DNA of 64,000 bases. Origin: Mytilus edulis. Lineage: Eukaryota. Made by a program: the position numbers and the translations under genes. The stretch lies in assembly GCF_963676685.1 (NCBI RefSeq), contig NC_092349.1:87482001-87546000 (forward strand), given 5' to 3'. The notes beneath the pieces are model-generated. The model was not told the origin of the DNA, did no database searches, and was given only the letters and a program-made list of their open reading frames with translations. Numbering within the stretch: the stretch's first letter is position 1; each line of letters starts with the position of its first letter. This document shows, piece by piece, positions 250 to 64,000 of the stretch.

Positions 250-360
250 ATAATCATAGATATCAGTATTACAATTTGGTACGCCAGACGCGCATTCGTC
301 TATACAAGACTCATAAGTGACGCTCGAATCAATGTTGTTAAAGGCAAAATAAAGTACTGA
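250..360 (-). mobile_element. Retrozyme-like repeat fragment with a degenerate type I hammerhead (281-323)
   Basis: Homologous to 61305-61505. Minus strand reads GCGTCA-CTTATGA-GTCT TGTAT AGAC-GAAT-GCGCG-TC-TGGCGT, with the catalytic core mutated. Confidence 0.75.
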
Positions 361-2758
361 GGTAAATTTCTCATTTATCTTGTTATACAAAACGCTTTAT
401 TTATTTCATTTGTACTGTTCTATGTGACTATGATTTATGTTGAATATCGGCTAAAAAGGAGTAGAATCATGTCTTGGCATCAACGGGACAACTATTTTTT
501 TGCCAAATTATTTTTATTCAAAATCGTGTTATAATAAATAAAAATGTACTCGATGCGATCTATCAGCATTTATGGATGAACCTTTGGAATGATTAACGTT
601 CAAATCCTAAAGTTGAAATAGACCAATTAGGAAAAAAATAGGAACACTATATAATTTAATGGGACTTAAAAAATTGCCAAAACTATTTAAGTATAAACTT
701 GCGCTCTGTAGTTTCAAGTTTGATTGTTTTCATAACAAAATTTCTCTAATTCTTACTCGATTTATCCTTTACCCGATCTGTTGATTATTTTTAATTAATC
801 AACGTGTGGTTTATTTGATCTCAGTTCTTCATTGGTCAAAATTCGATTATGACGTCAAACTTTCTTGCCTTCTTCTAAATTTCCAATTGTGACGGCATGA
901 AAAAAAGGCGACCATGCTTGATGACATCACATAGAAAGAACACATCTTGTTGCAGTTCATTTCAAAAGAAAGAATAAGTTTGCCCGCATATTGTTTAAAA
1001 ATCATTAGAGAAACAGATTCCTTAACTAAATCTTGTGTAATACGATCTTTATCCATTCCCGATAATTAAATTATAAATATTTAAAACGCTCGGTGGGCCT
1101 CGCGTTTTAAATTTGAAAAATTTAACTGTCTCGAGTCGATAAATATCGTATCACACTCGATACAGTGGTAGATTATATGTATCAATTATAAATATAATAA
1201 ATGTTTATAATAAACAATGCATCCGACACGCAGTTTCCAATCCATCCTCACGGAAGATCAGAACCATACGTTTGAGAAACATTATATGGATAACTAGTCT
1301 TGAAGCTCCAGAGGCAAAAGGGGATCGGCAACAATAGAAAGGATGGTCTAACTCATTTTGTGTTATGGGAGGTGCAAAGTTTTTGTGATGGTGTATGGCC
1401 TGGTCCATTCTGATAAATATTTAAAAAAAAAAATGAATAAAAACAATAACGATAATAATGTCCTTTCTTTCAACAGAATAACATATATAGTCCAAAGACT
1501 TGTTGACGTATAAGACTAGATTATTTATACCTGTATTAAATCCATCTTTCAACATACACCACCAAACGTGCTAACATGTGTACAAAATTATTAAGTACGC
1601 AAACTTAAGGTCACTGACCAACTAAATGTAAATTGGTTCGAAACTCCATTCACACTAACCATATCTACACAGTCACATGAATGCATTGAAATAAATTTAA
1701 TATAAAAAAAAAGATAGGTAGGCGATTTTTAATTAATTTCACTCTATTATACAATAATTGTTTTACAGGTTTAAGAAAATTAACACTGTTGTTGGAAAGG
1801 GTATTGCTTTTGACAGTAATTAAAGAGAAGTGTGCGGAGGGAATCCTTTTATGAGTAACGACATTTGCAATACAAAATGTAGCTTTGTTGAATTTCAACG
1901 CATACATAAACCGAATTTTAAAATTAAATCAAACTGAATTTTAGAATGTATCAGTTTCTGTTCACCCTTAACGATCACCTGAGGTACTAATCCGTAGATT
2001 CGTTTTATCTTGGGTCTAGTAACCTGATTAATTGTATTTCCATGTTGTATTTGTTAGACATTTGTGTTGATTCCATTGGTCCATTCATTGCCCTTAAATG
2101 ATACAAACTTTAAAATCGGCCATGAATGACAGTTGTAGAATTTACATTTACCAATTCCCCCTTAACAGGACTGAAACAACAACAGTCAAGGTTTCTGGAT
2201 GGGGAAAGGTGCATTGACAAGTAAATAACCGTAGGTAAAACACATAAAGGGTACCAGGCCTATAGTTTACAAAATATATCTTATAAATGATATTTCATGT
2301 CAAGTGGTGACTACTGGGCTGGTTATACCCTCAATGACGAAACCTACGCAGTTGCATCGACCTAGTGACTGTTAAATACGTGAAATATGGAACGCCAGAT
2401 ACAAATTTACTCCTAAAGACTCACCAACGACTCTAAAATCAAAACAGTGGAAAGGAACCGAAATTCCCATTTATATCATTCTAAAGGAAATTTCTTCTCT
2501 TATTAGTTCTTTTCTTTTCTCTCTATTTTAATCACCTTTATGTAGATCATTTGTACTGCTCGTTTATAAGTCCCCCCAAATTTAACTAACATTCATCTTG
2601 ATATGTCTCGTTGTTGTCTAATGATATTGTTTTGTAGTTCTTGGTCTGGCAATTTATGACATTTATTCTGTCTGGTCCAAAATAGTTTATTATTCCAAAC
2701 CTGTGCTATACAATCCATAGATATTCAACTTATGTTTTATATGAAAAGAGATCAATTC

Positions 2759-2900
2759 GGGTCTTTATATAGTTTTCTATAAGGTAAAGGTTTTGTTCAT
2801 TGTTTAAGGCCGTACTATGACCTAGAGTTGTTATTTCCTGTGGTCTTTGATGGAGAATGGTCTCATTGGCAGTCATACGACATCTTCTTTTTTTTTTATA
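2759..2900 (+). repeat. 5'-truncated 3' fragment of the abundant twister-bearing repeat family
   Basis: Aligns to 59690-59836 and ends in ...CATCTTCTTTTTTTTTTATA. It lacks the ribozyme region. Confidence 0.75.
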
Positions 2901-12016: not shown

Positions 12017-13072
12017 GAAGAATGGCCAACGAAGATACAAGTATTTTGTCTTAGGGAGGGATTAATCATACTTTGTAAAGGATTACTCTGATTCAAACAA
12101 AAAAATCTCTGAAACTGATATTATCAAGATGCTTGATTTCTTGATTGACAACATATTTGTTACGTTCGGACGACGTGTTTTTCAACAAACTGTCGGCATT
12201 CCAATTGGAACAAATTGTGCCCCTCTACTTGCCGACTTGTTTTTTTTATTATTATGAGGCTGATTTCAATCAGGAACTTCTTAGGAAGAAAGACAAGAAG
12301 TTAGCAATATCCTTTAACTCTACTTTCCGCTATATAGAGGATGTTCTTTCACTAAATAATGCAAACTTTGGTGACTATGTGGAATGCATCTATCACATCG
12401 AACTAGAGATAAAGGATACTACAGATACAGTTAAGTCGGCCTCATATCTTGACTTACATCTAGAAATTGACAATGAAGGTCGGCTGAAAACAACTTTACG
12501 ACAAAAGAGATGATTTCAGCTTTCCAATTGTGAACTTTCCATTTCTAAGTAGCAACATTCCAGTAGCAGCTGCATACGTGGTATATATCTCCCAATTGAT
12601 ACGATATTCCCGTGCTTGCATTTCCTATCATGATTTTCTTGATAGAGGGTTGCTGCTCACAAGGACACTATTAAACCAAGAGTTCCAAATGGTGAAGTTG
12701 AAATCATCCCTTCGTTAATTTTACGGACGCCGTCACGAGTTGGTTGACCGTTATTGAATAACCGTTTCACAAATGATATCGAACATGTTCCTTAAGTCGT
12801 AACTACAATCCCCTTACCTTTCATGAATGTGACCTACCGAATTAGACTATTTACCGGATTTGTTATTACATACATCTGCTTACCCTTCCGGAGCACCTGA
12901 AATCGCCCCTAGTTTTTGGTGGGGTTCGTGTTGTTTATTCTTTAGTTTTCTATGTTGCGTCATGTGTACTATTGTTTGTCTGTTTGTCTTTTTCATTTTT
13001 AGCTATGGCGTTGTCAGTTTATTTTAGATTTATGAGTTTGACTGTCCCTTTGGTATCTTTCGTCCCTCTTTT
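12017..13072 (+). mobile_element. 5'-truncated Penelope-like retroelement, decayed reverse transcriptase plus 3' UTR
   Basis: Frameshifted GIPIGTNCAPLLADLF, FRYIEDVLSL (YIDD mutated), SASYLDLHL, YDKRDDFSFPIVNFPFLSSNIP and YISQLIRYSRAC motifs. Absent at the paralogous site (~35846). Confidence 0.85.
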
Positions 13073-13436
13073 AAAAGATAAACAGCGCAAAAAACATCTA
13101 ACGGTAAATTTAAAGTCAGAATTTCAATAACTAAAAAAAATACGGAACAGTTTAGTACATTTCAGCCTGTAAATAAGGTTCATTTTTATAAGGTATCTCT
13201 CAATGCATTTATATATATTTGACAGTTTTAACATTTAGATGATTCTCTCTTCCATGCAACATACGGGTAGGTAAGTAGTCCATCATAGCGACAAACACAT
13301 ATAGGGACATGGAACAAGTCCATGAGCGTATTTGATAATGGAAAATTCAAAAATGCGCACCAACCACAGCACAGAAGAACGAGAATTTGTTTTGTTTGTG
13401 TTACTTATATCATTTGTGTTTTGTTTTTATAATTGG

Positions 13437-13640
13437 TATAAAAAAGAAGATGTGGTATGATTGCCAATGAGACAACTATCCACAAAAGACCGAAATGACA
13501 CAGACATTTACAACTATAGGTCACCATACGACCTTCAACAATGAGCAAAGCCCATACCGCATAGTCAGCTATAAAAGGCCCCAAAAAGACAATGTAAAAC
13601 AATTCAAACGAGAAAACTAACGGCCATATATATGTAAAAA
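13437..13640 (-). repeat. 5'-truncated copy of the twister-bearing repeat family (no ribozyme part)
   Basis: Reverse complement of 59645-59836. Absent from the paralogous site at ~36210. Confidence 0.85.
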
Positions 13641-13748
13641 AAGTATAGTTATTTTCAAATTTGGTCCAAGTTCAAACAAGTTCTGCAAGTATGACAACGA
13701 TTTCTTATGCGTTTTAAATATGTTTAATTGTAAACTGAATTTCCTTTA

Positions 13749-14579: not shown

Positions 14580-14650
14580 TGAAGAGACATGTATTGTCGA
14601 AATGAGCATCTGGTGCAAGAAAATTGATACCGTAGATTTTATTTCATAAT
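14580..14650 (+). mobile_element. Truncated retrozyme end with a partial hammerhead
   Basis: TGAAGA-GACA TGTAT TGTC-GAAA-TGAGCA-TC-TGGTGC, the same subfamily as 23818-23861, lacking the 5' strand of stem I. Confidence 0.8.
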
Positions 14651-20599: not shown

Positions 20600-21311
20600 T
20601 GATTGATCGATTTTCGGTGTTTAACGCCACTATAGGCTATACAGTAATGGCCAATTTATTTTGGTGGAGGATGCCGGAGTGACAGAAGAGAACCAGACTT
20701 TTTGCAGGAAAATTGGCAACTCTACTAGTCAATTAGGATTGGAATCGAACGCACCTGTCAGTATATGCGTGTTCTCAGAGTTGTACTTGGTACCTTTTTT
20801 GTTGTAAGGATGTATAAGTACCCTGCCACATCCGGTCTGTGTTGTTGTTAAATGTCTGTCTGCTTTGTATCGATCTGATGAGTTGCACCCTTTTCCACTG
20901 ACTTTAATAGTTTGTTCTTATGTTGTACTGATACACCACTGTCTAGGTTACTTTGAGGGTTCGGCGCCCGCAAACTACTTTAACCCCACCATATTCTGTA
21001 TGTGCCTGTCCCAAGTCGGGAGCCTATAATTCAGTGGTTGTCGTTTGTTGATGTGTATCATATTAGTTTTTCGTTATTATTTGCTTTACAAATCAGGCAT
21101 TAGTTTTCTCGTATGAATTGTTTTACATTTGTCGTTTCGGGGCCGATAATAGTTGACAATGCGGTATGGGTTTTGCTCATTGTTGAAGGCCGTTCGGTGA
21201 CCTATAGTTGTAATTTTCTATCTCATTTGGTCTCTTGTGGAGAGTTGTCTCATTGGTAATAATACCACATCTTTTTATTTTTATACTAAGACCACTCGGT
21301 CAACGAGATCC
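20600..21311 (-). mobile_element. tRNA-derived SINE remnant interrupted by the twister-family insertion
   Basis: A-box-like GGATCTCGTTGACCGAGTGGTCTTA at 21311-21287; the body continues at 20755-20600. Confidence 0.5.
20756..21285 (+). mobile_element. Near full-length, diverged copy of the twister-bearing repeat
   Basis: Colinear with 59325-59836; twister-like domain at 20935-21038. Confidence 0.85.
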
Positions 21312-45862: not shown

Positions 45863-48800
45863 TTTTTAGCAATAATCATGCTAATAAAAACCTCACAACA
45901 ATTTCTGAATTTACAGTAGTCTGGTATATAAAAAGACCCTAAATGAAAACGAAAAATATGTAAAACAATTCAAACTGAATTACAGGCTTCTGACATGGGA
46001 CAGGCACATACTAATTGAAGGATGTGATGGCCATTATGGGGCTATTGGGGGCTAGACTATATAGCTAGCAGTTTGTGGTGCCAAACCCACTTAACCTGGT
46101 ACATGTATATTGATGTGAAAAGGGCTTCACTCACAAGATCTATATACAGTATACAAAAAAGAAATGCATCTAACAAAAACTCACACAAGACATGTTTTTT
46201 GACAGTAAATTTATTCACACATTGACATTGGCAAGATACATGTACATTGAAAGGTTGTTCTGTTTGTTAAATGCCTGAAGTACAAATTATAACACAAATG
46301 ACAACAGGCCCGAGAACACAGTTCTTTCGTAGTGCATTAAATTCAAATTAAAAAAATCGCACCTGCTCTTTCTCAGAAAGATTTTTACAGTGTAGTGTAC
46401 TACCAGTGAGACAAATAATATCAAAATTATAGAAACTTCTACCAGCTCTAATGTTCACGAGTTTAGTCTTTCCTATATCAAAATGGTGTATTTTAACATG
46501 TTGGCCTATTAACTTAAAACAGCAAAACAAAATCTAATAAACATCTGACAGTAATTAATGCCTAGAATGATTTTTTTAACTGTATACAGTAGAATAGATA
46601 AATTAAAACCAGAAAGTTCATACTGTACATATATTTATTAGCTAAGCTGTTGATCTTCTTTCTGTTGTTTGCTTACATGTTCTTTGCATTCACTCAAAAG
46701 TAAAAGTACATATAGTTCTGTAAAGGTATAAAATAGTGAGCATCAGTTCAATATGTTCATACTAATTACTACATCTAGTTTTTGTGTGGACTTCATGGAC
46801 TTCTTGATTAAATAATTTAGATTTTATTCAATTTTAGCTTGTTACCAAAAGAATGGAAAGTACAGTATTAAAACCACTGGTGAACATGTACTGTACATGT
46901 AGGTGTGAATGTCCTGCAAAAAGAACTGATATCAAAGTATGTTCATCTCCAGAATTGCAGTAAATATAAATAATTTGATGCACTCTGTTCTCAAGTATAA
47001 TTGTACATGTACACTTGCTTATTTTTCTCTCTTTCCAATGTCAAGTCGGGGGTTAAGAAATTTTGTTATAGCTCACTAGACCAGGGCTAATTGGTAGCAG
47101 GATTTTACTAGCCCTGTTGGAAGAGCTGCTAGCCCAACAAAACTGACCTGCTGGCCCGAGTATGACTTACAAATTCAAAGTTTGCTGCAAAATACAATGA
47201 ATTCTATAAACTTTACAATTTTTATCCGTTGTACAGTAATTTTTAGCTAATTGGATAATCAAAACTATGTCAGCAAAAAAATATCCCATTAGCAGATATA
47301 TTCAATTGCTTTGATACATGTGATAATTGAATATTCCTTGACTATTCTGTAATAATGAGTTGACCAAATCCCGATATGGTACAACTCTTGACCACTGCTA
47401 TAGTATATTGGTATATAAAAGGATTGGGGTGATTTTTATCAAATACATCATTACGTTTGTGTATTAAAAAGAATTATGAAATGCTCATATTTGTTTTCAG
47501 TTTTAAAAATTCTCTTTATTAAAATAAATCAAATGACCTCAAATATTTATGTGAATAAATATCACCATCCATAGTTTGTGTCTTTTATAATTGTTTTATA
47601 AAGGAAGTACAGTAATATTTATATATAAAACGTATACATTTATCACAGGTAAGCTAATTGTGGGCTATAAATTGACTACAAACTGGGCATGAGTCTCTAA
47701 ACTGAAATAGTATTTGTTAGAAATTTTATTTCTTTAAAATCGAATTCAATTGAATATCAATGAAGATAATCGCTAAGATAGAACATGTAGAATGGTGATG
47801 AGGGGATTTTCCACTTTCTATTTTGAAAACGCCAAGAATTTTTTGTTTCTAGTCCGTCGGGCATATTAAGTTACAAGTTTTGGTTGCTCGAGGCCCAAAC
47901 GCTGTAGTAAAGAGTCAAAAATTAGTTTTATGGTTCAATAAATTCAAAATAAATAATAGCCGTTCATTAAAATGACATTTTATATTTAAATATTTTATGA
48001 TGTATTTAAATGAGTAGTTATTGTTGCAAACTCCATTAGAATTTTGAATTGAGATCATTTTTGGAATAAGAGAAAGGGGGACGTGGAAAAAAAATAGGGG
48101 TGGGGGTCATTTTAGATTTCAGAATTTAAAAAGAAAATTTCTTCAAATATTTTTTCTTTGAGAGGATTAATATTCAACAGCAAAGTAAATTGCTCAAAAG
48201 CAAAAAAAAAAAAATTAAGTTCATTAGACCACATTTATTCTGTGTCAGAAACCTATGATGTGTCAACTGTTTAATCACAATCCAAATTCAGAGCTGTATT
48301 CAGCTTGAATGTTGTGTCCATACTTGCCTCAACCTTCAGGGTTCGACCTCTGCAGTCGTATAAAGCTGCACCCTGTGGAGTATCTGGTTAAATTGGTCGC
48401 CATTTAGGTCCAAATGCCATACATATTATATACACAGGTAATGTGTAGTACACATGCATGAATAGAGTTAGTTTTCATTATTTAAAAAAAGAGGAAAATA
48501 TGTAGTATCATTGCCAATGAGACAACTATTCATCAGGTCAAAATGACTGAATGTTAGCAACTAAAGATACAAAAATAAACAGAGTTTTTCATTCATTTAA
48601 TTAAAAGCATTCACATAAGTATATTTTTTTACATTTTCTATTTTACATTATAGGTAATGAGATGTAGTAAAGAAGAAACAATGAGATGGAGTTAAGGAAT
48701 GAATTATAAAGAATGAACATGATGAAAGAAGGAACATAGCCAAAAAGATACTGAAATAAAAATAAATAAATACATTTGTTAATACATAAATTTGTATGTT

Positions 48801-50639: not shown

Positions 50640-50880
50640 ATAGTGTTTATTTGATTTTGTTGAATTTGGAGGTAGAACTCATCAACAAATTGTCGGCATT
50701 CATTTGAGATCGAACTGTGCATCTCTCCTAGACGACCTTTTCTTATTTTGATATGAGTCGGAGTTTCTGCAGAAACATGTCAGAAACAAGAACATTAAAA
50801 AAGCCAGATCATAAATTTCTCATAATGCACTAATGATGATTTTCTTTTCAATAACAATCAAAATTGATTGGGTTCCATTT
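50640..50880 (+). mobile_element. Highly decayed Penelope-like RT fragment (second subfamily)
   Basis: EFGGRTHQQIVGIHLRSNCASLLDDLFLF*YESEFLQ resembles the GIP.GTNCAPLLADLFL..YE motif. Confidence 0.7.
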
Positions 50881-53800
50881 ACATAAGAAAATGGCTGTAC
50901 CACATCAGGAATATGACAGTTGTTGTCTACTCGTTAAATGTGTTTGAGCTTTAGATATTGCTTGGGGACTTTCCGTTTGGAATTTTTGGAAATTTTATTT
51001 TCTTCATCCTCATCTGTATGTTCAAATTATCATTTTTGGCATTTCACATATGTGATATGACGTTATATCTTTAAAAAAAACGTAGTTCGTATAGACATAG
51101 ATTCTCTTGAAAAGATATATATGTTTCATTAGCAGAACATATATAGAATCAAGGTTAAATATCGAGGTCATATTGTTTTGTTTTAGATGTTTTTCTTTTG
51201 CACACCCAAGAAACCGTCCGATGTATCGACGAAATGACGATAAGGTGCGTTACGACATGACATAACTTTAATCATTAGTTGTTCTAGTGATTAAACTACT
51301 GAACCACAAATATAACAGGCTTTTTGTCAAATGTTTGAAAACCACGACCCATGACCTTGGCATTAATATAAAAGTTATATGTCAACTTTACTTTCTACAT
51401 TTTGACATTTTCTAAAAAGTCAACCGAAAGTGGCCACTTATTAATCACAACACTAGTAGCCAGATTTAAGTCTGAAACGGTCATTTTGGTCTGATCAAGT
51501 CTTAATCGACTTAATTTACCGCTAGAAAAAAACGTTAAGACCTGTTTAGACACTCAGACTCTGTTAAGATAAATTGTGTTCAGTCAGATCAGTCGTGTCA
51601 AGATACACAAGACAGATTCATCTAGCATTCAAATAAGACTTGATTAGATCACGTTCAGATCAAATAAGACCAAAGGTGAACAACTTGTTTAGTTGCAGTA
51701 AGATCGTGTTCAGTTGTGTTAAGATTTTAAATATTTTGAATAAAACGGGCGACACTTTATCTGTTTTTATCAGGGGTTACTCCCCCTTTATGAATATAAT
51801 CTCTATATCTTGGATGATATTCTTTTGTGATCTTTTAATATGACTGTATATCTATTTAATTAAATAAAGTATGCAAACTTTAAAAACAATTCATTTATTT
51901 CCGATAGAATCTTTAACATTCCATTGGTTATATGAAAAAAGATTAATTGTTGTAACCGGAAAATTTGTCATAAAAACTTTGCAGTCTGACATAAAGTAGT
52001 CCTGCATGTATGCATTCCGCCTCTAAAGATATAATGATCAGTATTAAATATATCTCAAAGATGTTCTTAAACATGTTTTGTTTCTAATGTAGAGTGATAG
52101 TTTTTATCTATATTTTAAGTATATAATTTACTTTTTATTTTAAAATTGTACACAGATGACAGATGCTTTGTGAAAGTTATTTACATTTTAATAAACGGAT
52201 TATTTAAGCAGTCAACCGAAACGGATGAGCATAAACTACCTAAATAATTACGCATTCGTGTCACTGGACGTATAATGAATGAAGTTCCATGTTTTATCTT
52301 TAATATAAGATGTATAAAGTTAAACCGGGTTATATTATTACATTTACAAATAAAACATTATTTTATATTTTTTTAAATAAATGCAACAATTATATTAGCA
52401 TATTTTAAAAATTTAATTGATAGTTTATATTGACCATTATATACATATAAAGACCGATGTCGATAACTCATTTGAATTTTTTTTTTTCGCCATTTTTTTT
52501 TTTATAGCACGAATTAAATACAAGAGTAAATCATATCATAGAAAAATACCAAACAACGTTAGTTAAGACACGATTGATAAAATCTAATTTACGGTTTATA
52601 TTTCTGTTTCGTATCAGATTTGTTGAAGCACCAGTGTTACTACTCATTTTGAAAAACAGCGAGACGCTTACTTGCTATTTCGGAATTGACCAAAAAGCTA
52701 TAAAATAACGTAGCGAAATGACCGTATTTATAGATTAGACTTTTGTTTTTCATTTTTAATTGTTTAATTGTTACGATTGCATTCAGGCAGAGAGAAATAT
52801 GTTTTATTTTATTTCAGATGATTTAGTACAGATATAAAAATATTCTTACTGATCTTTTACAATCTACAAATATAACTTGATAATGTATTTTATACACATG
52901 GTATATAAAATGCTTGTAGTATTCCGTTACCGGTTGTACGCTCATATCTAAATACCTTTCTATTTAATAAGAAAGTGTGAAAAAAACAGATATTGAAATT
53001 CACCTGAAAAAGAGTAAACGAATAGCGGCTATCTAAATTATTTTTCAAATATCGAATAAACAAATAAATCGGCCACGCTTGCAATTTGTTTTTTTAATGA
53101 CAGGTGTCTGCTGTTATTCGATTGGACATCAGTATCAATGTAGGCGTAACAACCTATCATATTTATCCAATCAGCTGTCTTGTATAAGGTAAAATGTATT
53201 CGATGACATACGGTCCACATAGTTTAGTTTTTTTTAAGTTGATTGCAATAAAAATTATTCATACACTCTAAAACAAACAATATCCTGCCCAAAAATTACT
53301 TACAAGACACTATATTATACTTTTAAAAATAACTATATTAAATTACAAATTAAGACAGCGTAAAAATAAAAACATTAATAACAATTACAGTACTATTTAA
53401 CGGTAGAGCTCTGATTTAACGGGGACTATTGTACTATTAGAATGATAGTCCCAGCAAGTTAACAAATTGATCATCAAAAGGACGGTTGTGCTATTGTGAG
53501 CGAGGGACTTGCCGGTACGTCAAAAAACCACCTAGGCCGCTTTGGTACACTAAGCTCTCGAATCTGCACTAAGACATTGACGGAATACTATAGAGACTAA
53601 TGAAAAGTCCATGTGTGGACATGTCAGATAAAAATAGAAAACGCTTATATTTAAGAATAAACAAGTCATGAAAAGAAATATTACTATACATTGTACGGAC
53701 ATTTAGACTAATTCACTTGCTTTGATACAGCGATTATGAAAACATGACACATTTTTATCAAGTTTTTATTTTATTTACTTGTGCACTCTATTGTGGGACC

Positions 53801-56693
53801 TCGTGTCATCATGAATGATACATTTTATTGTGTATTAAAATTGATTAAGGAATAACGCAAGATTGCAGAGAAGCCAATTAGAATAACGTATTATAATGAA
53901 ACATATATCTAATGTTATTATAACATTGTACATGTCCTCCTAATGATACATCTAATAGTTACCACTGGACATTAAACAGCTAACTATAAATTCATCCGTC
54001 ATATTCTTAGTTTTGTTATAATGTGAAAATCCAACAACATGATGATATAATAATTTTTGCAGATTTCACTATGGAAATACGTGGGAAATAATTGTAAACA
54101 AAACCACTCAATAACATCCCTACGGCACAAATTAAAGTCTAGCCTTTTCACATTAAAATACGTTATTTTCATTAATCTATTCTAAATAATTTTAAACAAT
54201 TTTAAATCAAACGGTATTTTTTCTTATTTGCCATAAAAAAAACCAATTATTTGCATTACTTATTTTAATCAGATCGATTGTTTTTCAATGGTCGGTGCCT
54301 GTCAGCATTTATAAAACCGTGTTTGCCAGACAGAAAGCTACATAAAACAGGAAAACAACAATGTATTAGAAATACTTCAAGGTCCTACGTGTATATTCTA
54401 TTTTCTGTTGTAATGTGGTGTAATGCAAAAAAAGTTAATTCCTGAATACTGATTTGTACCCATCAAGCATTTGTGGTTAATAACAAATCTTTGGTAGTCT
54501 CTTCTTCTTTACTCGCAAAGTATTCGACTAAATCATGTTTTATTAATGAAAATTGCTCATTGCTGGCGAATGTTAAACATTGATCTCTAGGTTTTCAATT
54601 TTTTAGTTGTTAGGTTACTGTCTGATCTCGCAAACCTGATATTTTATGGTCATTATTGTTTGCATCCAATTGCACCAATGCATTAAAAAGATATAAACGC
54701 GACACCGTACGAGAGTCGTTAATCGTTATTTTACATAAACTATTAGTATTTTCTTTCTTTAACGAAATACGAAACCACTTCTCGCAATTCGCTTTGGGGT
54801 TATTGTGCTTGTCTTTTGACAAAAAATAGCCTTGTTTCAAAAACAAAACGTATAAGAGTAATATTTAAAACTGAACTAGAGTGCAGAGATAGGAAGTAGG
54901 AATTTTGAATTTTAATTGAATGTTCTAAATCTTAGTGTATTTCTGATATATGATTGTACAGACTCAAAAATATCTTTGTTTTTCTGAAATAGATAAATAG
55001 ATAGATAGATAGATACTTTATTCGTAGATACTTTATATTTGTTGAAATGAAAGGTCACCGTCACCAGCCATTGAAAGCAAAATGGATATAGTAGATCTTT
55101 CAAATTTTAAAAACAATATTTCTCTTGCTTCGTTGATAAAAGGGCACTTAAGAAATAGTGAATACTATCCTCAACAGGATGACCACAGCTGCTTGCGGGA
55201 TTGGGTTTAATATTGATAAGGTTTATATCTGCATTTGAATAAATGTACCATATTTCTCAACTGCACTGGTATTAAACTGATAACCGTAACTGGAATTACG
55301 ACTATCCCAATATGGCGACGGCAGATATATGTAAAATTTTTACAGCCATTTTTTCTCAAATGTAGCATGTTTTTGTCAAAAGTTACTCAGCTGCAAGGTT
55401 TTTCTATACCATTACATCATATTTGAATCGTAACGGTGCACTGGAATTGTCTAAGCGCTTTGAACATTGCCGTTGAAAATTTTTGCCAACATCTGTTACA
55501 GAAGAAGGTTGTCAAAGTTGAGAAAAACGCTTGGTACTTTTATATACTTTGTGGAAAGATAGAAAAACACTATAATTTTCGTCAGAACTCAAAGACTCGT
55601 CACCAGAGAACAATAGATAAATTGTAATATTGACAACAAAACATTGATTTCATTTATCATTATAAGCCTTTGTGAATAAAAATTGTTATAATATAATAGA
55701 TGAATAATGATTCTTTGATATGTCCCATTGTCTACTGAATATTTCTAAGATCAATAATTTAAAATTTGTATACCAAACATTTAAAATTTTCCCCGGCGTT
55801 TATAAATAGCATTGAAAGTACAACATCTTATAAACGATAATCATTGATAAATGTAAATGAGCCACTCTTTCTCAGGTTGAGATGGAATATGTTCGTTATT
55901 TGATTTAACGAGTTTAACAATCAAAACCCCTGAAATATCGTCTTATGACAAGCACGAAAAATGGCGAAACAGAACTTCCAACAGCGGACAAGGATTTCTT
56001 ATTATACAATATTCTTTCAATGGATGTTTTAAATGCAATGTAGAACTTATCCATTAAGACATTTCGTATCCATTTTGAAATATGAAGTTACATGCATGAA
56101 GAAGTTTGTCTGACGTATAAAAATTGAAATAAAGCATGACGGGAGTTAAGAGAAAAAGGGAAGTATGGCCATTTTGCGAAAAAGAAAAGTCATGATGACT
56201 TAATGAAAAACAAGTCAGGATAAATTAATAACTAAGAAATGCAGGACAGAATAGAGTGTAAAATAAAAAAAAGCAGGACTACATTTACATTGAGATTACA
56301 TTGAAGAGGGGCGTACATCCTCTACGCCCCCTCTGAATCTGCCACTGGATATCTAGTTTCGCTGAAAAAGAATGAATTTGCGCAACAACTTAATTACGCC
56401 AATTCTTATTTTACATGCTTTATTGTAAAAACTGCAGCATTCATTTGCGCCAATAAAACAACCATTTAATTGTGCAAATATTATAGACCTGTTTTCAGAT
56501 GTTTGTTCTTAGTGCACTGAGGAGGTCCTTTCCGGCATTGACAGGTACAAGCAAAGGGTCTCCTTAGTGCACTTAGAACAAACTAGTGCACTTAGGACCT
56601 GATGGGATGATAGAACACAAAAACATGACATAAAAATGGAGACTTTCTTAAAGTACTTTATTTCAAATTTTATAATCATATCTTTAGTAATTA

Positions 56694-57195
56694 CCTGATT
56701 AAATCAAATATGTAATAAAAAATATATCTTCATGTTCTACTTTTTGAGTTAAATGAGGTCGAAATTTTGTATTTTTGCTCAAAATTCGGATTTGTGGCCG
56801 TATTTTCCCTTTCGAAAGAAAGACATAACTTTTTTATTTTAAAAGATAAACACAAATTGTTTTTTGTGAAATAATTTGTAATTTCTGTTTTGTATACGTA
56901 GTCTAAAGAGTTATGCATTTTTTGTTCAATAATAACTCATATTTATCAAATGGTCAAGAATTGAGAAAAACAAACGTCATTTTTTGCTGTATATTTTTCA
57001 AAATTAAAAAAAAATTGCACTATTTACAGTTTTATAAAATATGGTCCACATAATCTCCCTGCAAAATGAAACAAAATGTCGTTTTAAAAAATGTGGGTCC
57101 ATGTACTCGTTTTCAAATTAAATCAGTTTGAATGATAAAAATCAGTCGAAAAATGCATCTTTTCCCGATATGTCACAGTTTGACGTCGCGAAAAT
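56694..57195 (-). repeat. Inverted, TIR-less copy of the Kolobok-like element at 57201-57819
   Basis: Reverse complement of 57254-57751 with scattered mismatches. Confidence 0.9.
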
Positions 57196-57200
57196 TTTAA

Positions 57201-57819
57201 GGGCATACGATACAGTTACAGGGCAGGTAAAGACGTTGCTAACGTAAAATGATATTTTCGCGACGTCAAACTATGACATATCGGGAAAAGGTGCATTTTT
57301 CGACTATTTTTCATCATTCAAACTGATTTCATTTGAAAACGAGTGCATAGACCCCTATTTTTTAAAACGACATTTTGTTTCATTTTGCAGGGAGATTATG
57401 TGGACCAAATTTTATTAAACTGTAAATAGAGGAATTTTTTTAATTTTGATAAATATACAGCAAAAAAATACGATTTTTTCTTAATTCATGACCATTTGAT
57501 AAATATGAGTTATTTCTGGATAAAAAATGCATAATTTTTTAGGATACTTATAAAATACAAAAATTACAAATTATCTAACAAAAAACAATTTGTGTTTATC
57601 TTTTAAAACAAAAAAGTTATGGCTTTCTTTCGAAAGAGAAAATACGGCCACAAATCCGAATTTTGAGCAAATATACAAAATTTCGACCTCATTTAACTCA
57701 AAAAGTAGCTCATGAAGGTATATTTTTCATTACATATTTGATTTAATCAGGCAAAAACTAGCCTATATGGAAATTTTCATCAAACTGTAAATACAGGATC
57801 AAAACTGTATCGTATGCCC
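57201..57819. mobile_element. Kolobok-like MITE, 17-bp TIRs, TTAA TSD
   Basis: TTAA-GGGCATACGATACAGTT...AACTGTATCGTATGCCC-TTAA. Confidence 0.9.
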
Positions 57820-59299
57820 TTAACAGTTCAAGTCAGTATTCTAATGTAACATGTACGTGTAAATAAGTAAATCGTTTCGAGGTAAATATGACACAACTAA
57901 TAAAATTGAAAATGGAAATGAGGAATGTTTAATGTTCCATTTATTGGCGCAATTCATATTATAAAAAAAGAAAGAAGAGATGGGCACGATTCAAACCTTT
58001 ACAATTTGACAAATTACAACTGACCGTTTTGACAAACCAGTAAATTCTTCGTCCGGGGATATGCAGCTGACATTAATCTTCCTTCGGTAACTTTACAATA
58101 CCCAGCCGTGTCATTTCCGTATATTGTACATGTAGATAGCTCGTGTGATACATGTATATACACCAGAAATACCCATCATTCAAGTGATTTTTATTTTTAG
58201 AAGAACTCCATATCGGGTAACATTAAATATACATACACATAAAATTACAGTTGAAAAAAAAAATGTTAATAATAAGTTCAAATGTTGTTTTTATTAAATG
58301 CACCTAGGTACGTATTTGTAAACTTATGTTGTTACTTTATTTCATATAAATTTTATTTTTCTCGTTGTGTTGCTTGTCCATTAATTGACGTTTACGCTAT
58401 ATTTTTTGTTCGGTATTTGTGAAAACCTGCTCATCTATCAATTTCACAAGAAATATAAAACAGTCGTAAGTCATGAACACTGAAGTTTAACTTGTTATCA
58501 ATTTTTTGTATACGCAAAAAGATAAAATTAAATGAAACACTTTAAAGCTGTTTAAATCATGCAGTGAGTTTTGAAAATATAGTTTTGAAAAACCGTTTAT
58601 TTTTGTTTAATACTTTTTCTGTCCCTTTTCTTAAAAATTATGACACGTGTCACTGGTAAATATAGAACTAGTCCACTATGAATAATCACAAACAACAAAT
58701 TTTTGAATCTTTTATCATAAATTTTGTTCTGTTAAATCAAAGACATGTAGTACATGTATTCTATTATCCGGGATAAATTATTCACAATGATAAAGACATA
58801 AGGGATGATTTAGAAATTAGCATGTTGTGTATACACATACACCTATCTATTGGTGAACACTTATATGTTGCCCACTAGCTGTCCTTATGTGATTTTTATT
58901 GTTTGGTTGCGAGTGTCTCGTTGTCGTTCAACCCACTATGATCTCCTACAGTTTCAATATATATTTTTCATAAGACTTTGCTCAGAGGAAAGTAATAGAA
59001 TAGGTTTGGATATACATTTTAAATCCCCAAAATTTTATTTTAAACTATTAATTTTGAAGACGTGTGTTATCTAAACGAAGTCTATATGGTCACCAAATCA
59101 CCTGTTTATTGTCTGTTTTGGTTTATTATTTTAAGCATAAAGTTTATAAATCCATCTCTGAACACACATTATACATGTATAGCATTAAGTCAAAGTAAAC
59201 ATTAAACTTATGAATGGCGGAAAAGAAATATCTGAAAACGATAGATGGATGTTGGATGTGTACGGATTGATAGTTTAGTCTTAGTTGCATGATTTTTTT

Positions 59300-59836
59300 A
59301 TTAGTTGTTAGTGACTTTGAACTAGCTGTCAGATAACTGCGAGTACTCTCAGATTTGTTCATTGTGTCTTTTTGTGTCGGGATGTATAAGTACCGGGCCG
59401 CGTCCACTTGTACTTTTGTCCATCTGATGAGTTAAGCCTTTTTCATCTGATTTTTATAGTTCGTTCTTATGTTGTACTGTTATACCACTGTCCCAGGTTA
59501 GGTGGAGGGTGGGGATCCCCTTAACATGTTTAACCCCGCCACATAATTTATGTATGTGCCTGTCCCAAGTCAGGAGCCTGTAATTCAGTGGTTGTCATTT
59601 GTTTATGTGTTACATATTTGTTTTTCGTTAATTTTTTACATAAATAAGGCCGTTAGTTTTCTCGTTTGAATTGTTTTACATTGTCTTATCGGGGCCTTTT
59701 ATAGCTCACTATGCGGTATGGGCTTTGCTCATTGTTGAAGGCCGTACGGTGACCTATAGTTGTTAATGTCTGTGTCATTTTGGTCTTTTGTGGATAGTTG
59801 TCTCATTGGCAATCATACCACATCTTCTTTTTTATA
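59300..59836 (+). mobile_element. Longest copy of an abundant non-coding retroposon-like repeat carrying a twister ribozyme fold
   Basis: At least five copies in the window share the 3' end CACATCTTCTTTTTTATA and differ in 5' truncation. Confidence 0.85.
59484..59592 (+). ncRNA. Candidate P5-type (circularly permuted) twister ribozyme
   Basis: P5 CAGGU/GCCUG extended by ACCACUG/CAGUGGU; P2' GGUG-GA-GGG; U^AA-CCCC-GC; P3 CACAUA/UAUGUG; P4 CCUG-UCCCAAGU-CAGG-A. Confidence 0.78.
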
Positions 59837-61304
59837 CTATCAGTACACTATTCTATCAACATGTGTTTGGTGTCCATTTTACAATATATTGTTTAAAAAT
59901 TTAGTGTTTTCTTATTCATTCTGACATCTGTGTCCATGGCTGTTAACAAGAAATTGCGAAGACGTTATGCTTATCTGTTCACCTTTAAAAAGGATTTTTC
60001 AACAGAATATTATATCTATAAAATTAATTGTTTAATTTTTGTTTTTCTCTGCGAAAACAAAATGGCCCTCAAGCTAAATGTCATCGTCATCGGCATGTAT
60101 AATAGAAGACGATAAACACTTTAGAATATACACCACCTGCTGGATCTTTTTACTTGTGCACATATCTCGTTACGTAACAAGTATGAATGTAAAATTCTCG
60201 ATATGGTACATGTATATTCAGCCGAATATACACGGTATCTCTGGACTGGGGTATTTAAGATATTTTGATCTGATAATGAAACATGTAAATATATTTGTGC
60301 TTTATGTAAAAAAAATGCATTTAACCATTTTATTTTTAAAACTTCTTTAAAATAAGTTGACTTTGAGCAAATATTAGGTGAATATTAGATTAAATTTGGG
60401 AAGTCGTGTATATCCCATTTGTTAGGTGAGAAATAAAAAAAATATCAGCTGGGTTTAAGAGTTGCAAATCTTAACAAATTAAATTTATTTTGTATTTGTG
60501 TACCTCAATAGTGTTTGCTAAATATATGTTTTCTCGAATGCCGAAAAGTGAAGAGTTTTTAATACGTGTAAATCACGAATTCACACAAACGACGTTTATA
60601 AATGGTCTGTTCAAAAGTTTAGCTACACTTTTCAAAATATTTCAGACACGTAAATAATATAGGTTATTAGTGCTAGCTTCACAAAGAAAATATCCACTGA
60701 CATGCATAATATCTAATGTCATGGGCCACGGATGGACTGTCTTTATTATAGGGATGCCCATGTGGCACATCAAAGATAAGATTGATTTAACCATTGTACT
60801 TTAGAATTGCAACAAATCTTAAATTCTGAAAATCACTTGAATACATTAACCTGTTATCTTGTCGACTTTACAGCTTATTTCCTAATGCTTGTAGAGTAAA
60901 ATTTTGGTAGGCTTGCTTGCTCTGTTGGTATAAACACGAATTCAAGCTTTGTAAATAACATTGACATCTTCAAACAATGTAGAGGCACATTTTAATCTGT
61001 ATATATTATATTTAAATTTGATTGGACATTATCCCAATTACAATTGTAAAATATACAAACTAAGCAATCAAGCTAACAAAAGTCTCGCTTTACATGCATT
61101 GGGAAATTAGCTGTAAAACCAACATATAGATAGCCGTTATATCATGAGAAGAGATCACGATGAAATTTGAAAGTTAAACAAATCTTATAGTTTTCACGGG
61201 AACGAATATTTTGTTTAAACGTTGTAGTGATCAGCCCATCAATGACGTAATTTAAAAAATAAGACGACAAGGTCGAAAATAGTTATAGACGTCTTATAGC
61301 AAAT

Positions 61305-61505
61305 AAACTCACCATAGATACCAGGACTAAATTTTGTATATACGCCAGACGCGCGTTTCGTCTACAAAAGACTCATCAGTGACGCTCGCATCCAAAAAGT
61401 TAAAAAGGCCAAATAAAGTACGACGTTGAAGAGCATTGAGGACCAAAATTCCTAAAGGTTTTGCCAAATACAGCTAAGGTAATCTATGCCTGAGGTAGAA
61501 AAGCA
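61305..61505 (-). mobile_element. Retrozyme-like repeat (second subfamily), partial
   Basis: Same layout as 23791-24114; homologous to 250-360. Confidence 0.8.
61342..61385 (-). ncRNA. Type I hammerhead ribozyme (GUC cleavage triplet)
   Basis: GCGUCA-CUGAUGA-GUCU(UUUGU)AGAC-GAAA-C(GCGC)G-UC^UGGCGU; core complete. Confidence 0.92.
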
Positions 61506-64000
61506 ATTATAGGCAACAATACGGCCTTCAATAACGAGAAAAACATTACCATATAGTCGACCGATCATTAAAAGGCCCCGACATAAAAATGTGATTTTTA
61601 TTAAAAACTTTACAGAGTGAATTCATATAAACTTACAGAAAAACAAAAAAGTCAGCTATCTTATGATCAAAAACAAGCTTCTGTCCTAGTTTAGTAGAAA
61701 TCCAGGATAGTTTAAGAAAGTTATTAGAGTTTCAAACACTTCAACCACAAAGTGAATATGTATTTGTGGTTTGTGGATCGCTATGTCTCGCTTTTGCAAC
61801 AAAAGTCGCAGGCTGAACAAAAATGTAATAAACTGTTATACTTTGCGAAACATGTGTATCTTCTATGTCAGTAATGAGTATGTGTTGGTAAACAAACTCT
61901 ATGCATTTTTTACTATTTTAAAATATCTTTATAAAATATTACTAGAGAACTTAAAAAAGTGAACTTACGGAACAAGCAAACGAAATTAAAAGAAACAAAA
62001 CATAAGTAGAAAATACACTTTTACATAGAAGTAAAAACTATAGCAGACAGAAAAGCAAAATAGATACGGCAGTAATAACTATGCCATAAAAAAACCCAAG
62101 AACAACATAAAATAACATAATATATACATTTTTAATAAGTATACTAGTGTATTCAAAACGGGTCATGGTTGAACGAACATGAATTTCTATAGATTACAAT
62201 CAACTGAGTGTGGCGCGTGTCGATAGAACATTAAATAACTTTCTAATTACTTAAGATATGATTATAAAACTTGAAATTATTTATTTTTAAAACGTTAACT
62301 TAGATATGGACTGTCCTTTGTGTCAATTTTATCATTCCATCAGGTCCTTAGTGCAATTTTTTGTTCTTAAAGGGGTCTTTTGCACTAAAGGGGTCTTTTG
62401 CGGTATTTCTACGGACCCCCAAAAAAGATTTAAAGGACAAAACGTTAATATATGGATTGGTTTTTTTTCGGAAAATGTTTCTTTTGGCAAATATTTGAAA
62501 AAAAAATCTTAACTTTTACATATTCAATACATTTTAGGTAAACACCTAGAGTTACAAATATACGACCATACATTTTTGATAGAAAATAAATTCATTTTCA
62601 ATATCGTTTATCTTTTTAACTATACTAAATTTGCGGTTTTGTGACATGAGCATGTAGTTTAAACAATGTCGTCAATAGTGTTAGAAAGAAGCTATCAAAA
62701 ATGATTTAGAACCTTATACTACACATACGGAGGTACATGTATGATACCATGACAGGTGAACTTATGATATAACTGTGAAATAGCCATTGTAATTGCCACG
62801 TTATTTTATGGATCGTTGATTTTATTACCTTTGGATTATTGGCACGTGCCATCGAACTTAATCTTTATAGACCGAATATTAACGCATACATACGTTACTT
62901 CTACAGTTTAGAAGGAGAAGACGAAGAAGAATTATTTATAATAGTGCAATCTTAAAAAACAAATAAATACATATTTTATATCAAATAAGTTTTTTATTCA
63001 AATGAAAGAAAGGATAAGCGCATTTACAAACAGATGTACTAAGACATATACTCGATGCTCGAACTTAAAATTAGGTTATGATTGTTTTAATCTATGAGGA
63101 TCTGGAGGGGGTCCTTCATTTCTGTATTCTTTAATGTTTAGTAGGTCGGGTTTTTTCTTTATACTTTTTGTCTATTATTATCAATTCTTTATATTCAAGC
63201 ACCTTATTATTCTCAATTCTTTATATTTTTTTTCCATTTTCTCTATTATTCATATTTATAGCCGATCATTCTCTATTCTGTAAAACCTATCGACATCCTT
63301 CTCTTTCCGATGGTATGTTATTTAAAGTTTTAACACTCTCACTTCACGGCCTTAGAGCAGTTTCGGAAGCTTAGTTCAAACGGAGACATGGTTCCCTGAT
63401 GCGGCCTGATGAGGATAACGAAATTAACGATATAAATTATCTGTGATATAAAATATTTGTATTTTGCGTTGATCGTTCCAGATGAAGTAAAATCCAGAAA
63501 CGTGATTTGGACGTATGAAATTTATAAGATGTTGTTGTCACTCTTTTGTTAGTGTTATGTTTAAAATTTGCAATTACTTTTTTAAAAGAATAAGTAGATA
63601 AATACATAAATTAACACCAGAAAATAAAAAAAATAAAAATAAAATCAGAAACAGTTATTGGCGAATAATTTATTTCTACAACAAAACAAGCTAACAAAAC
63701 TGTATAATATATATATATAATTTATTCTCTTATACCTTAAACAAAGATCAACAGAAATAAAAAGCCAACGAATGATTTTATGTTTAATAATTCAAAATAA
63801 TATACGTTTTTTATTCTAGCATTTATAATACAATGTATCATCCACATAAAGGGGCGTAACTCCTAATATCATTCTAACACACTAAACGGATCTTAACCCG
63901 ATCTGAAAGTTTTGAAAGTTACTTTTTATGATTGGTCTTAATTTGTCCAAAACAGTCTTAACAGACTTGATTGAACGCTAGAGCCTTCCATCTGGATTAA

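Follow-up and report, generated by a model that had tools for sequence, protein, structure and literature searches.

Mussel Naiad elements carry a conserved twister-type fold, predicted to self-cleave, beside hammerhead retrozymes, probable parasites of a Naiad

We analysed a 64-kb stretch of Mytilus edulis DNA (hereafter, the window) in which a sequence-only reading had described two ribozyme classes on parallel non-autonomous retroelements. We consider it probable that the window instead holds truncated tails of autonomous Naiads, with a conserved and, by prediction, likely self-cleaving twister fold in their 3' UTR, and, separately, hammerhead retrozymes for which a Naiad is the likely host. 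As had been proposed, the two ribozyme classes are genuine, each has ties to Penelope-like elements (PLEs), and the hammerhead carriers are non-autonomous. The supposed parallel twister family is not: its members are 5'-truncated 3' ends of autonomous elements. The two motif classes are thus likely related as host and parasite rather than as twin parasites. The twister-type fold in the Naiad tail had been overlooked.

Twister-type folds in the tails of Naiad elements

All three full twister-type loci of the sequence-only reading were recovered. The first (20934-21043, +) lies in a Naiad A-like 3' end (20864..21285, +), has a variant palindrome, GGCGCC, and has lost P2 (CTTT against CCCC). The second (34528-34643, -) lies in a family A 3' end (34308..34643, -), its T1 broken (TGA against CCC). 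Among the window twisters only the third, at 59485-59597 (+), retains the core, with one P2 mismatch; it belongs to a 5'-truncated family A 3' UTR (59246..59836, +; 92% identical to genomic copy L185) that starts inside a SECIS-like hairpin. A fragment reported near 45975-46010 proved to be a family A twister reduced to its 3' half (45974..46012, -; P3-P4-L4 only, 92% over 39 nt). A fifth, degenerate 3' half (~50894-50910, core with three mismatches) is joined to an RT piece in an internally deleted family D remnant (50656..50986, +; 76-78% to L353 in two pieces), and a family A 3' tail at 13437..13642 (-; 91% to L185) is truncated downstream of the twister.

The Penelope-like RT fragments held up at 12117-12778 and 50656-50775; at 29-33 kb, the large RT belongs to an AP-endonuclease LINE and not to a PLE. 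The 12117 copy is a broken Naiad-type RT piece with the 3' UTR of family C (12117..13076, +; E 1e-28 in tblastn with a family B protein query). Naiads of family C have spread despite having no twister: no twister core was found in the 2.2 kb downstream of this copy or of L213, and no ribozyme was found in a second family C 3' UTR at 38330..38782 (-; 82% to 12654-13076).

Beyond the window, too, the twisters sit in the 3' UTR or pseudo-LTR of autonomous Naiad PLEs, and the window copies are 5'-truncated tails of such elements. Copies selected by their RT had a twister downstream in 30/30 cases for family B, 25/30 for A and 20/25 for D; in D' the twister is contiguous with the RT, and family E showed RT remnants upstream in 3/30. 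Stop codon and twister are a fixed distance apart (~360 nt for family B, 410 for A, 950-1,000 for D and 1,040 for D'), and the twister lies 130-360 nt ahead of the fixed 3' end. Every pseudo-LTR that reaches this fixed position therefore has a copy. One element, L407, is arranged pLTR-ORF-pLTR with 3,968 bp between its twisters, and 226 pseudo-LTR junctions were found.

The intact element L412 has a 1,002-aa frame with an N-terminal GIY-YIG-type motif, CxC, DKA, a C-terminal RT and four in-frame UGA codons; the GIY-YIG, CxC, DKA and RT motifs were also read in the L207 frame. Since Pfam and PDB searches with the intact protein gave no significant match, the Naiad assignment rests on these motifs. 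They agree with the published account of Naiads, as far as available to us, as do the pseudo-LTRs and 5' truncation (PMC8557442). Family B has the features of a selenoprotein Naiad, namely four UGA codons at the conserved cysteines named for clam selenoprotein Naiads in that account, plus a 3' UTR SECIS; the two Mytilus entries there are, in the portion available, unmarked as selenoproteins, unlike family B. In L412 the SECIS_1 match (32.3 bits against a cut-off of 35, E 2e-4) lies 55 nt past the stop codon. The single family A copy reaching the homologous sites has two UGA and one TAA, and the SECIS-like hairpin of this family folds and has no Rfam hit.

Family D matches Naiad_Mgal in its 3' end and twister, and we equate it with that element of PMC8557442. 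The consensus of Naiad_Mgal, Bpla, Mphi, Scon and Mmer all end in this fold when judged by eye, and Mcor and the record before Naiad_Pmar show no such fold at the 3' end in the portions covered (7 of 11 bivalve consensus 3' ends). In the parts of that paper at hand no canonical hammerhead is reported in Naiads and the word 'twister' is absent. An RT tree of nine fragments gave two changes with weak support and does not separate a single twister origin from loss in family C.

The model of paired, non-autonomous RT-parasitic RNAs whose ribozymes are interchangeable is largely refuted, and we now regard it as very improbable. Most twister copies are indeed short and non-coding, a three-unit 207-bp twister array exists (L275-L277), and in the D' 3' UTR a dead retrozyme is fixed upstream of the twister, all of which speak for that model. 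The twister copies, however, have ragged 5' ends that extend into the RT frame and a single fixed 3' end, 0/30 A/B loci are short tandem units, and intact coding elements exist. As to interchangeability, the L275-L277 array was the only retrozyme unit with a twister that we found, and behind the Naiad RT no canonical hammerhead was found at a fixed place, apart from the dead retrozyme remnant in D'.

Conservation of the fold and its predicted activity

The 59485..59597 copy reads, in order, P5, P2', GA-GGG, palindrome 1, palindrome 2, U-AA, P2, T2, P3, P4 with L4, and P5, with a predicted cut between 59531 and 59532. Arranged in this way, the fold corresponds to the P5-open permutation of the twister. 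In the portions of the twister literature available (PMC10085705, PMC6765202, PMC8501958), type P5 shares with it the U/AA cut, P2, T2, P3, P4 with a UCCCAAG loop, and T1 with GAGGG. It differs from that type in having no P1, two covarying palindromes, a T2 pair of G-U, A-U or C-G, and a score far below the Rfam cut-off: the Rfam twister-P1 model gave 19.5 bits (E 0.3, cut-off 67.2) and covered the 3' two-thirds, there was no twister-P5 hit, and neither family B nor L185 gave any twister hit.

The N/AA cleavage loop and the GA-GGG strand of L1 occur in all families, with U or C before the cut; little or no variation was seen in the adenosine pair that follows the cut, in the G-A ahead of T1 or in the AAG within L4. 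Pairing was kept in 88.8% of cells, against 30-43% in slid controls, and 11 of 22 pairs showed two-sided changes, a covariation that reflects about six families and not 144 events. P2, P3, P4 and P5 were 75-100% paired, with two-sided changes in P2, P3 and P5; P4 is invariant in the mussel families here, and both its sides are altered in the Mphi, Scon and Mmer consensus. The T1 triplets were CCC/GGG (63), ACC/GGT (50) and CCT/AGG (18), together 131 of 144 parsed copies, and one T1 position is U-U in those same three published consensus. T2 is G-U or A-U here, as compared to G-C in Rfam and C-G in the clam consensus, and P2 of families D and D' is 3 bp with a bulge. RNAalifold returned P5, P3, P4 and a palindrome-1 stem unprompted. 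The five published consensus, as far as available, bring further palindrome, P2, P4 and T2 variants, again with the adenosines, G-A and L4 AAG (nearly) invariant.

In these alignments the predicted P2, P3, P4, P5, T1 and T2 pairings are retained across families despite sequence change. We are confident that the fold is under selection, and with somewhat less assurance we predict that it is catalytically active at family level. The sequence-only reading had envisaged that the twister repeats might be catalytically dead at consensus level; as judged from sequence, the family is not.

Next to the cut, where P1 would lie, UU faces UU and no helix was found. Two palindromes occupy the place, and their sequence, centre included, differs among families. 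The palindrome AACATGTT near the cleavage site had been correctly noted, and a second, better-conserved one directly 5' of AACATGTT had been missed. Palindrome 1 has the majority forms TGAGATCTCA, GGGATCCC, TAGCTAGCTA, TAGCGCTA, TGGCATGCCA and TGGTACCA, and at a length of at least 6 nt it was present in 122/144 copies (background 7.8%). Its centre changes between GATC, CTAG, CATG, GCGC and GTAC, always self-complementary, and these central bases are unable to pair within a single strand.

Since self-complementary stretches stand in for the first helix, the fold is predicted to cut best once two RNA copies have paired. The partners would join through their palindromes, within a tandem transcript or in trans, and the pairing would stabilise the cleavage-site junction and so make cutting dependent on it. 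Self-dimer energies of -12.5 to -24 kcal/mol, compared to about 0 to -3.7 as monomers, are consistent with this, although for D2 (p 0.13) and the 21 kb copy (p 0.07) they did not exceed those of shuffled sequences. On balance we slightly favour cleavage that is dimer-stimulated.

One alternative is an active monomer, whose palindromes form two small hairpins or pair RNAs for packaging or reverse transcription and not for catalysis. Twisters with poor or absent P1 still cleave, according to the available part of PMC8501958, RNAalifold gives palindrome 1 as a 3-bp hairpin, and palindrome 2 is imperfect in D and D' (odd centre; 1/55 perfect). Such hairpins, however, would be worth just the monomer energies given above, and a hairpin loop would not require a centre that is self-complementary in every family. 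We judge this alternative possible, though less likely than not.

Evidence on cutting itself came from the 5' ends of genomic copies. The near-full-length copies L412 and L431 begin exactly at the predicted twister cut, and 5' pseudo-LTR ends avoid positions -340 to -16 (2/23, as compared to 11/25 for solo copies; Fisher p 0.009). There was no excess of 5' ends at the cut: true ends numbered 9 at position 0, 8 at -4 and 6 at -7, and near-full-length copies made up 2/9 of the ends at the cut and 1/14 of the others (p 0.54). Raw 5'-end matches at the cut numbered 15, as compared to 14 and 15 in two controls and 44 in a third that is confounded by point mutations. None of 40 sampled pseudo-LTRs started within 3 nt of the cut. 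With 5' ends no commoner at the cut and none of these pseudo-LTRs starting so close to it, cutting is not an obligatory step, and stalling of the RT could mimic the pattern; the genomic footprint is suggestive only. Four RNA runs, compared with family B and with window positions 58800-61650, showed no accumulation of read termini at either cut; most reads derive from diverged passenger copies, and we gave this result no weight in either direction.

In a further alternative, the fold would be a twister derivative of little or no catalytic power, retained as a structural signal for RT binding, stalling or RNA stability, its palindromes possibly maintained at the DNA level. The Rfam score below threshold, the lack of a read-end signal, the many pseudo-LTRs that run through the cut site and the clustering of 5' ends at -14 to -4 rather than 0 would all fit. 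We nevertheless consider this unlikely, as the adenosines, G-A and L4 AAG are near-invariant across the families and the five published consensus and as the 5' ends of two long copies coincide exactly with the cut.

For an active twister, we propose that read-through RNA from an upstream pseudo-LTR would be cut at U/AA, freeing a unit-length template; template release is the role that hammerheads are thought to play in other PLEs. Those hammerheads (PMC4209133, available in part) likewise combine a pseudo-LTR position, a weak cleavage-site helix, a palindromic loop and a proposed dimer activity, and they differ in ribozyme class and in having one palindrome rather than two. A dimer-type design of weak cleavage-site helix plus palindrome would thereby occur in two unrelated folds. 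The twister variants of Perere-3 and RTE LINEs (PMC8501958, PMC7761336, both in part) resemble ours in their defective P1, retrotransposon setting and 5' ends at the cut as a footprint; they are P1-type, an AP-endonuclease LINE carries them at its 5' end and the target site provides P1, whereas ours are P5-type in a PLE 3' UTR. PMC8557442, in the part available, describes Naiads as a PLE clade that thrives without canonical hammerheads and sees in this a sign that hammerheads may be mere parasites of PLEs. A second ribozyme class at the same position in mussels and clams argues instead that pseudo-LTR self-cleavage is a function of the element.

Hammerhead retrozymes and their presumed helper

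Six hammerhead loci had been claimed, two of them intact. Four belong to real families, and the intact pair was confirmed. The family H1 copy at 61303..61504 (-; 5'-truncated, 92-94% to L098) has an intact type I hammerhead at 61342-61385 (-), with a predicted cut after 61348 and an Rfam Hammerhead_1 score of 32.5 bits (E 3e-4, cut-off 34). The near-complete H2 unit at 23784..24114 (-; 90-96% to L136) has the other, at 23810-23860 (-), with a predicted cut after 23824. Both remaining cores are damaged: an H1 remnant at 244..357 (-; 77% to the 61.3 kb copy) reads CUUAUGA..GAAU, and an H2 remnant at 14580..14643 (+; 95% to the L136 unit) is truncated within the core. A retrozyme body fragment at 2272..2367 (-; blastn against retrozyme units, E 5e-10 to 7e-14) is without a hammerhead. 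At the Rfam gathering threshold there was no match in the whole 64-kb window.

The claimed locus at 63406..63424 (+) has CUGAUGA..GAAA, and we read it as a chance motif outside the system because no credible stems were found in the window or in nine paralogous copies. A CUGAAGA..GAAAC-like pair (~16860 and ~38968) has no hammerhead fold, and a genome DNA search, of a kind that can miss repeats, found no further copy of the motif at ~16.8 kb. The half-core CTGATGAG, located 5' to the family A twister, lacks a GAAA partner and was left uncounted. The GCGC palindrome reported near the hammerhead cleavage site was confirmed in helix III, retained as a perfect 8-nt palindrome in 85/101 distinct copies; palindromes adjoining the cleavage site are thus conserved in both ribozyme classes.

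The retrozymes are tandem units of 350-367 bp with no coding frame. A neighbour at 331-367 bp was found for 11/30 H1 and 15/30 H2 loci, none of which runs into an RT; short tandem units thus occur among the hammerhead loci and not among the 30 A/B twister loci. By description (unit size, tandem arrangement, absence of ORFs) the window hammerheads belong to retrozymes matching those published for Mytilus. The non-LTR retrozymes of M. galloprovincialis comprise two similar type I hammerhead families, ~350-390 bp, tandem and ORF-free, and a monomer construct cleaved at ~0.1/min, a point against dimer activation (PMC7229834, available in part). The hammerhead half of the finding is in that sense ordinary. 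In three runs, RNA reads over the 61.3 kb copy favoured the hammerhead strand 1.6-6 fold, and in a fourth there was no strand bias; this measure cannot separate circles from tandem DNA.

The available part of PMC7229834 leaves the helper open and names PLEs as strong candidates. Retrozyme units extend 33-45 nt beyond the cut site of their hammerhead and stop immediately ahead of a head motif, CTGCTGGTGGA..CCCCGAGGG, which in tandem units comes right after the retrozyme end. The same motif occurs at the 5' end of Naiad family D: a genome pattern search placed it upstream of the family D start codon in 23 copies (control 0). The 5' UTR of family B showed no such motif. The shared head may allow the Naiad RT to copy retrozymes; going by this sequence likeness, the hammerhead retrozymes likely parasitise a full-size Naiad and borrow its enzyme, and family D is quite probably the helper. 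Vertebrate retrozymes (bioRxiv 10.64898/2026.07.22.740005) also depend on PLEs and derive there from PLE pseudo-LTRs. In that case the hammerhead is common to host and derivative, whereas the likely host in mussels carries a twister and has only the 5' head in common with the retrozymes. Twisters, Mytilus and molluscs go unmentioned in the part of that preprint at hand.

We tentatively put forward a joint reading, which we think has somewhat less than an even chance: bivalve Naiads would have swapped the Penelope hammerhead for an obligately dimeric twister, its cores joined by two palindromes and its RNA cut only on copy pairing, that senses tandem or high-copy transcription, and a circular hammerhead parasite would use the same RT via a copied 5' head. 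The system provides a natural candidate for a dimeric twister, intact young elements and a named helper for the mussel retrozymes.

Genomic abundance and the CACTA carrier

Exact cores numbered 10,100 for the twister and 15,127 and 4,492 for the hammerheads genome-wide, with 0 in all reversed controls; twister-type remnants number ~100,000 by extrapolation. Evenly spaced genome samples (400 kb) held 31 twister cores and 22 hammerheads, or 5.0 and 3.5 expected per 64 kb. The motifs exceed chance, and their co-occurrence in one 64-kb window does not.

The sequence-only reading had also raised derivation of the twister repeats from DNA transposons. As an origin of the ribozyme repeats this is refuted, and we give it next to no weight: copies selected by pattern have unrelated flanks and the anatomy of Naiads or retrozymes. 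It is true locally. The 59.5 kb twister, the best copy, and the intact 61.3 kb hammerhead are both cargo of a young DNA transposon, and most of the best 30 matches to the 59.5 kb copy have its flanks on both sides. The carrier (51451..64000) is a 12.7-kb element of what we take to be the CACTA family. It is non-autonomous, as no transposase gene (no frame >121 aa) was present in the one copy examined. It ends 151 bases beyond the window, and copies 91-99% identical occur on several chromosomes, with CACTAG..CTAGTG ends and a 3-bp target duplication in 6/6 copies examined.

Ribozyme motifs in the window and across the genome

The sequence-only reading had counted six hammerhead loci in the window, two of them intact. 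Motif scans and self-comparison recovered the two intact copies but only four retrozyme-type loci in all. The three full twister-type motifs that it had listed, and a twister fragment (45974-46012), were found again by the same means, together with a fifth twister remnant near 50.9 kb. Rfam gave no match in the window at gathering level and a single sub-threshold hammerhead at 61342-61385. The earlier observation was partly confirmed, and its interpretation was partly supported.

Across the 1.37 Gb of genome searched, exact twister cores numbered 10,100 for Naiad families A and B, 5,110 for D and D', and 160 for E, while exact hammerhead cores numbered 15,127 for retrozyme family H1 and 4,492 for H2 (reversed controls 0). 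In forty 10-kb samples spaced evenly along the genome, 31 twister cores (control 0) and 22 hammerheads were counted, and extrapolation from them gives ~100,000 twister remnants in the whole genome. Because these samples predict 5.0 twister cores and 3.5 hammerheads per 64 kb, the ribozyme motif density of the window (C6:87,482,001-87,546,000) is the genome average.

Twister-type motifs on Naiad elements

The twisters had been placed on non-autonomous parasites of a reverse transcriptase (RT), and this did not hold. When the boundaries of 30 twister copies chosen by pattern were compared, they showed a single fixed 3' end, 280-310 nt past the core, and ragged 5' ends of up to 1.5 kb running into an RT frame of the same sense. 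In the reverse test, where copies were picked by RT and then checked for a twister downstream, one was present in 30/30 copies of family B, 25/30 of family A (the window type) and 20/25 of family D. The D' twister was contiguous with the D' RT, and RT remnants lay upstream of the family E twister in 3/30 copies. No twister was found for family C (RT at 12.1-12.8 kb).

An intact family B element (L412) encodes a 1,002-aa frame in the order GIY-YIG-type motif, CxC, DKA and RT. Because these are the marks of Naiads in PMC8557442, we assign L412, and by its motif layout the twister carriers, to these Penelope-like elements. The end of family D matches the published Naiad_Mgal consensus, with an identical twister stretch. 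Another locus (L407) has an ORF between two pseudo-LTRs (partial copies in tandem with a full one), each with one twister.

The order of parts in the predicted fold is P5, P2', GA-T1', linker, N/AA, P2, T2, P3, P4 with L4, and P5, an arrangement that the parts table of PMC8501958 gives as P5-open. The predicted cut lies at U/AA, or at C/AA in family D, and the motif is about 110 nt long (in family B, L208:6745-6860). Parsing succeeded for 144 of the 245 distinct contexts, and T1 triplets, for which the parser favoured the better-pairing choice where several were possible, were CCC/GGG in 63, ACC/GGT in 50 and CCT/AGG in 18. Among 15 representatives, 88.8% of cells were paired, compared to 30-43% in a slid-partner control, with two-sided change at 11/22 pairs; a shuffle control was inflated by the relatedness of the sequences. 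RNAalifold recovered P5, P3 and P4 unprompted. Rfam scored a window twister copy at 19.5 bits only and returned no twister match for family B or for family A (L185). As judged by eye in the PMC8557442 supplement, the Naiad_Mgal, Bpla, Mphi, Scon and Mmer consensus sequences all terminate in the same twister-type fold, with two-sided changes in P2, P4 and T2; a T1 position is U-U in three of the five. Structural and comparative support is good for reading the motif as a variant form of the twister ribozyme, at a site from which none had been reported.

Twisters are known at the 5' ends of RTE-type LINEs (PMC8501958, PMC7761336). Titles and abstracts, with few subscription papers among them, yielded no Naiad twister, Penelope-like-element twister or palindrome-paired twister, and the word "twister" is absent from the main text of PMC8557442. 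The accessible part of a 2026 preprint (bioRxiv 10.64898/2026.07.22.740005) derives vertebrate retrozymes from PLE pseudo-LTRs and mentions neither twisters nor molluscs. The hammerhead half of the observation is already known; the twister in the Naiad 3' position is unreported in the literature so surveyed.

Several further features of these elements were noted. Family B, a young, high-copy Mytilus Naiad, has four in-frame UGA codons at cysteines named for clam selenoprotein Naiads and a SECIS match 55 nt past the stop codon (L412:2135-5143, L208:6500-6564); PMC8557442 marks neither of its two Mytilus entries as a selenoprotein. In family A, UGA stands at two of these sites, and a SECIS-like hairpin has a different sequence. 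A whole family D twister is present in each of three 207-bp units that lie head-to-tail at C1:5.262 Mb (L275-L277), and twister repeats at L278 are spaced about 600-630 bp; these are possibly twister-based retrozyme seeds or local duplications. Naiad tails and retrozymes often sit beside or within the ends of another Naiad copy (L207:3635-3960, L210, L171 and L175, oriented), which suggests an insertion preference.

Linker palindromes and possible traces of cleavage

The sequence-only reading had given the twister a minimal stem with a palindrome near the cleavage site. The P1 helix cannot form, and two palindromes occupy the linker. Palindrome 1 has six majority forms and reaches at least 6 nt in 122/144 copies, compared to a background of 7.8%; palindrome 2 occurs as AACATGTT, AAACATGTTT and AAACGTTT, with an odd centre in D and D'. 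Since the centres vary between families yet remain self-complementary, within-strand pairing is no explanation. Predicted self-dimer energies of the linkers were -12.5 to -24 kcal/mol, with p below 0.05 against shuffles in 7/9. Further palindromes, such as TGATGCATCA, TGGAGCGCTCCA, GGTGCGCACC and AAACCGGTTT, were seen by eye in the bivalve Naiad consensus sequences of the PMC8557442 supplement.

Two long copies (L412 and L431) start exactly at the predicted twister cut. True 5' ends showed no excess there, with 9 at the cut, 8 at 4 nt upstream and 6 at 7 nt upstream, and they led into the 5' UTR in 2/9 cases at the cut versus 1/14 upstream (p 0.54). Pseudo-LTR junctions were collected at 226 loci; in the first 40 of these, no start fell within 3 nt of the cut; 17 lay downstream (counting two too short for alignment), three at -14 to -6, two between -340 and -16, and 18 beyond the stretch fetched (counting eleven scored at -343). 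Starts in the gap upstream of the cut were found for 2/23 pseudo-LTRs versus 11/25 solo copies (p 0.009, in a test picked post hoc), a difference compatible with cleavage, with a start site or with RT stalling. Most RNA reads from four runs came from diverged passenger copies, and the reads gave no signal at cut sites of family B or of window 58800-61650.

Hammerhead retrozymes and other repeats

For the hammerheads, 30 H1 and 30 H2 loci were picked in genome order. The tandem arrays expected of this class were present, with a neighbouring unit 331-367 bp away in 11/30 H1 and 15/30 H2 loci. All 60 had a 3' end 33-45 nt past the cut, and none extended into RT. As likened by description, H1 and H2 agree in family number and repeat size with the M. 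galloprovincialis retrozymes of PMC7229834: there, two families of hammerhead are carried by repeats of 350-390 bp, a monomer construct cleaved at about 0.1/min and the RNA builds up as circles. The window hammerheads therefore fit known retrozymes.

Helix III was a perfect 8-nt palindrome in 85/101 distinct copies, in agreement with the palindrome proposed at the minimal stem. It took three forms, ACGCGCGT, ATGCGCAT and ATCCGGAT, the last from a single H2-like array (L347) where it replaces ATGCGCAT. In animal hammerheads, a helix III that is short and palindromic is established, as is cleavage by dimers (PMC4209133). Paralogous CUGAAGA..CGAAACCGT motifs at about 16850-16900 and 38960-39010, of which further copies were not found, are possibly an old minimal hammerhead.

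The two ribozyme classes are linked by sequence. CTGCTGGTGGA..CCCCGAGGG occurs both directly past the fixed end of the retrozymes and in the Naiad D 5' head; this head precedes the D start codon in 23 genomic copies and occurs in Naiad_Mgal and Bpla of the PMC8557442 supplement. In addition, a dead hammerhead retrozyme is fixed in the D' 3' UTR, upstream of the twister, in most D' copies reaching that far (L251, L254-L256, L264, L267, L271 and L273, at about 1105-1390). Because of the shared head and this fixed copy, the twister Naiad is likely the host and the hammerhead retrozyme its parasite.

The best twister of the window and one intact hammerhead are cargo of a young, non-autonomous, 12.7-kb CACTA-type element, which begins at 51451 and extends 151 bases beyond the window. 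Target duplications of 3 bp flanked 6/6 copies, and no transposase frame was found in the element. It is built mainly from captured repeats (a Naiad tail, a retrozyme and a piece of a 191-bp satellite), with other copies at L061-L072 and L076-L080; in the window copy, an inverted-repeat insertion of 1.1 kb has been added at about 56685-57820.

The window is a duplicated region filled with repeats, with a tandem duplication of about 4.3-16.9 kb versus 23.1-39.0 kb. Three coding frames for dynein light chain (LC8) are intact in it (2976-3250, 13744-14031 and 36311-36613, all on the minus strand). It also holds a C1q-domain frame (21883-22386, minus strand, Pfam E 2e-9), a LINE with AP-endonuclease and RT in several frames (29.0-33.2 kb, plus strand), at whose start the assembly has a 100-base gap, and another AP-endonuclease remnant (19.0-20.5 kb, minus strand). 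Spurious Rfam miRNA matches were due to CATATG-rich palindromic minisatellites at 39011-39303 and 49498-49753. The 191-bp tandem repeat spans 44890-45741 in 4.4 copies, with one further copy inverted at 61656-61762.
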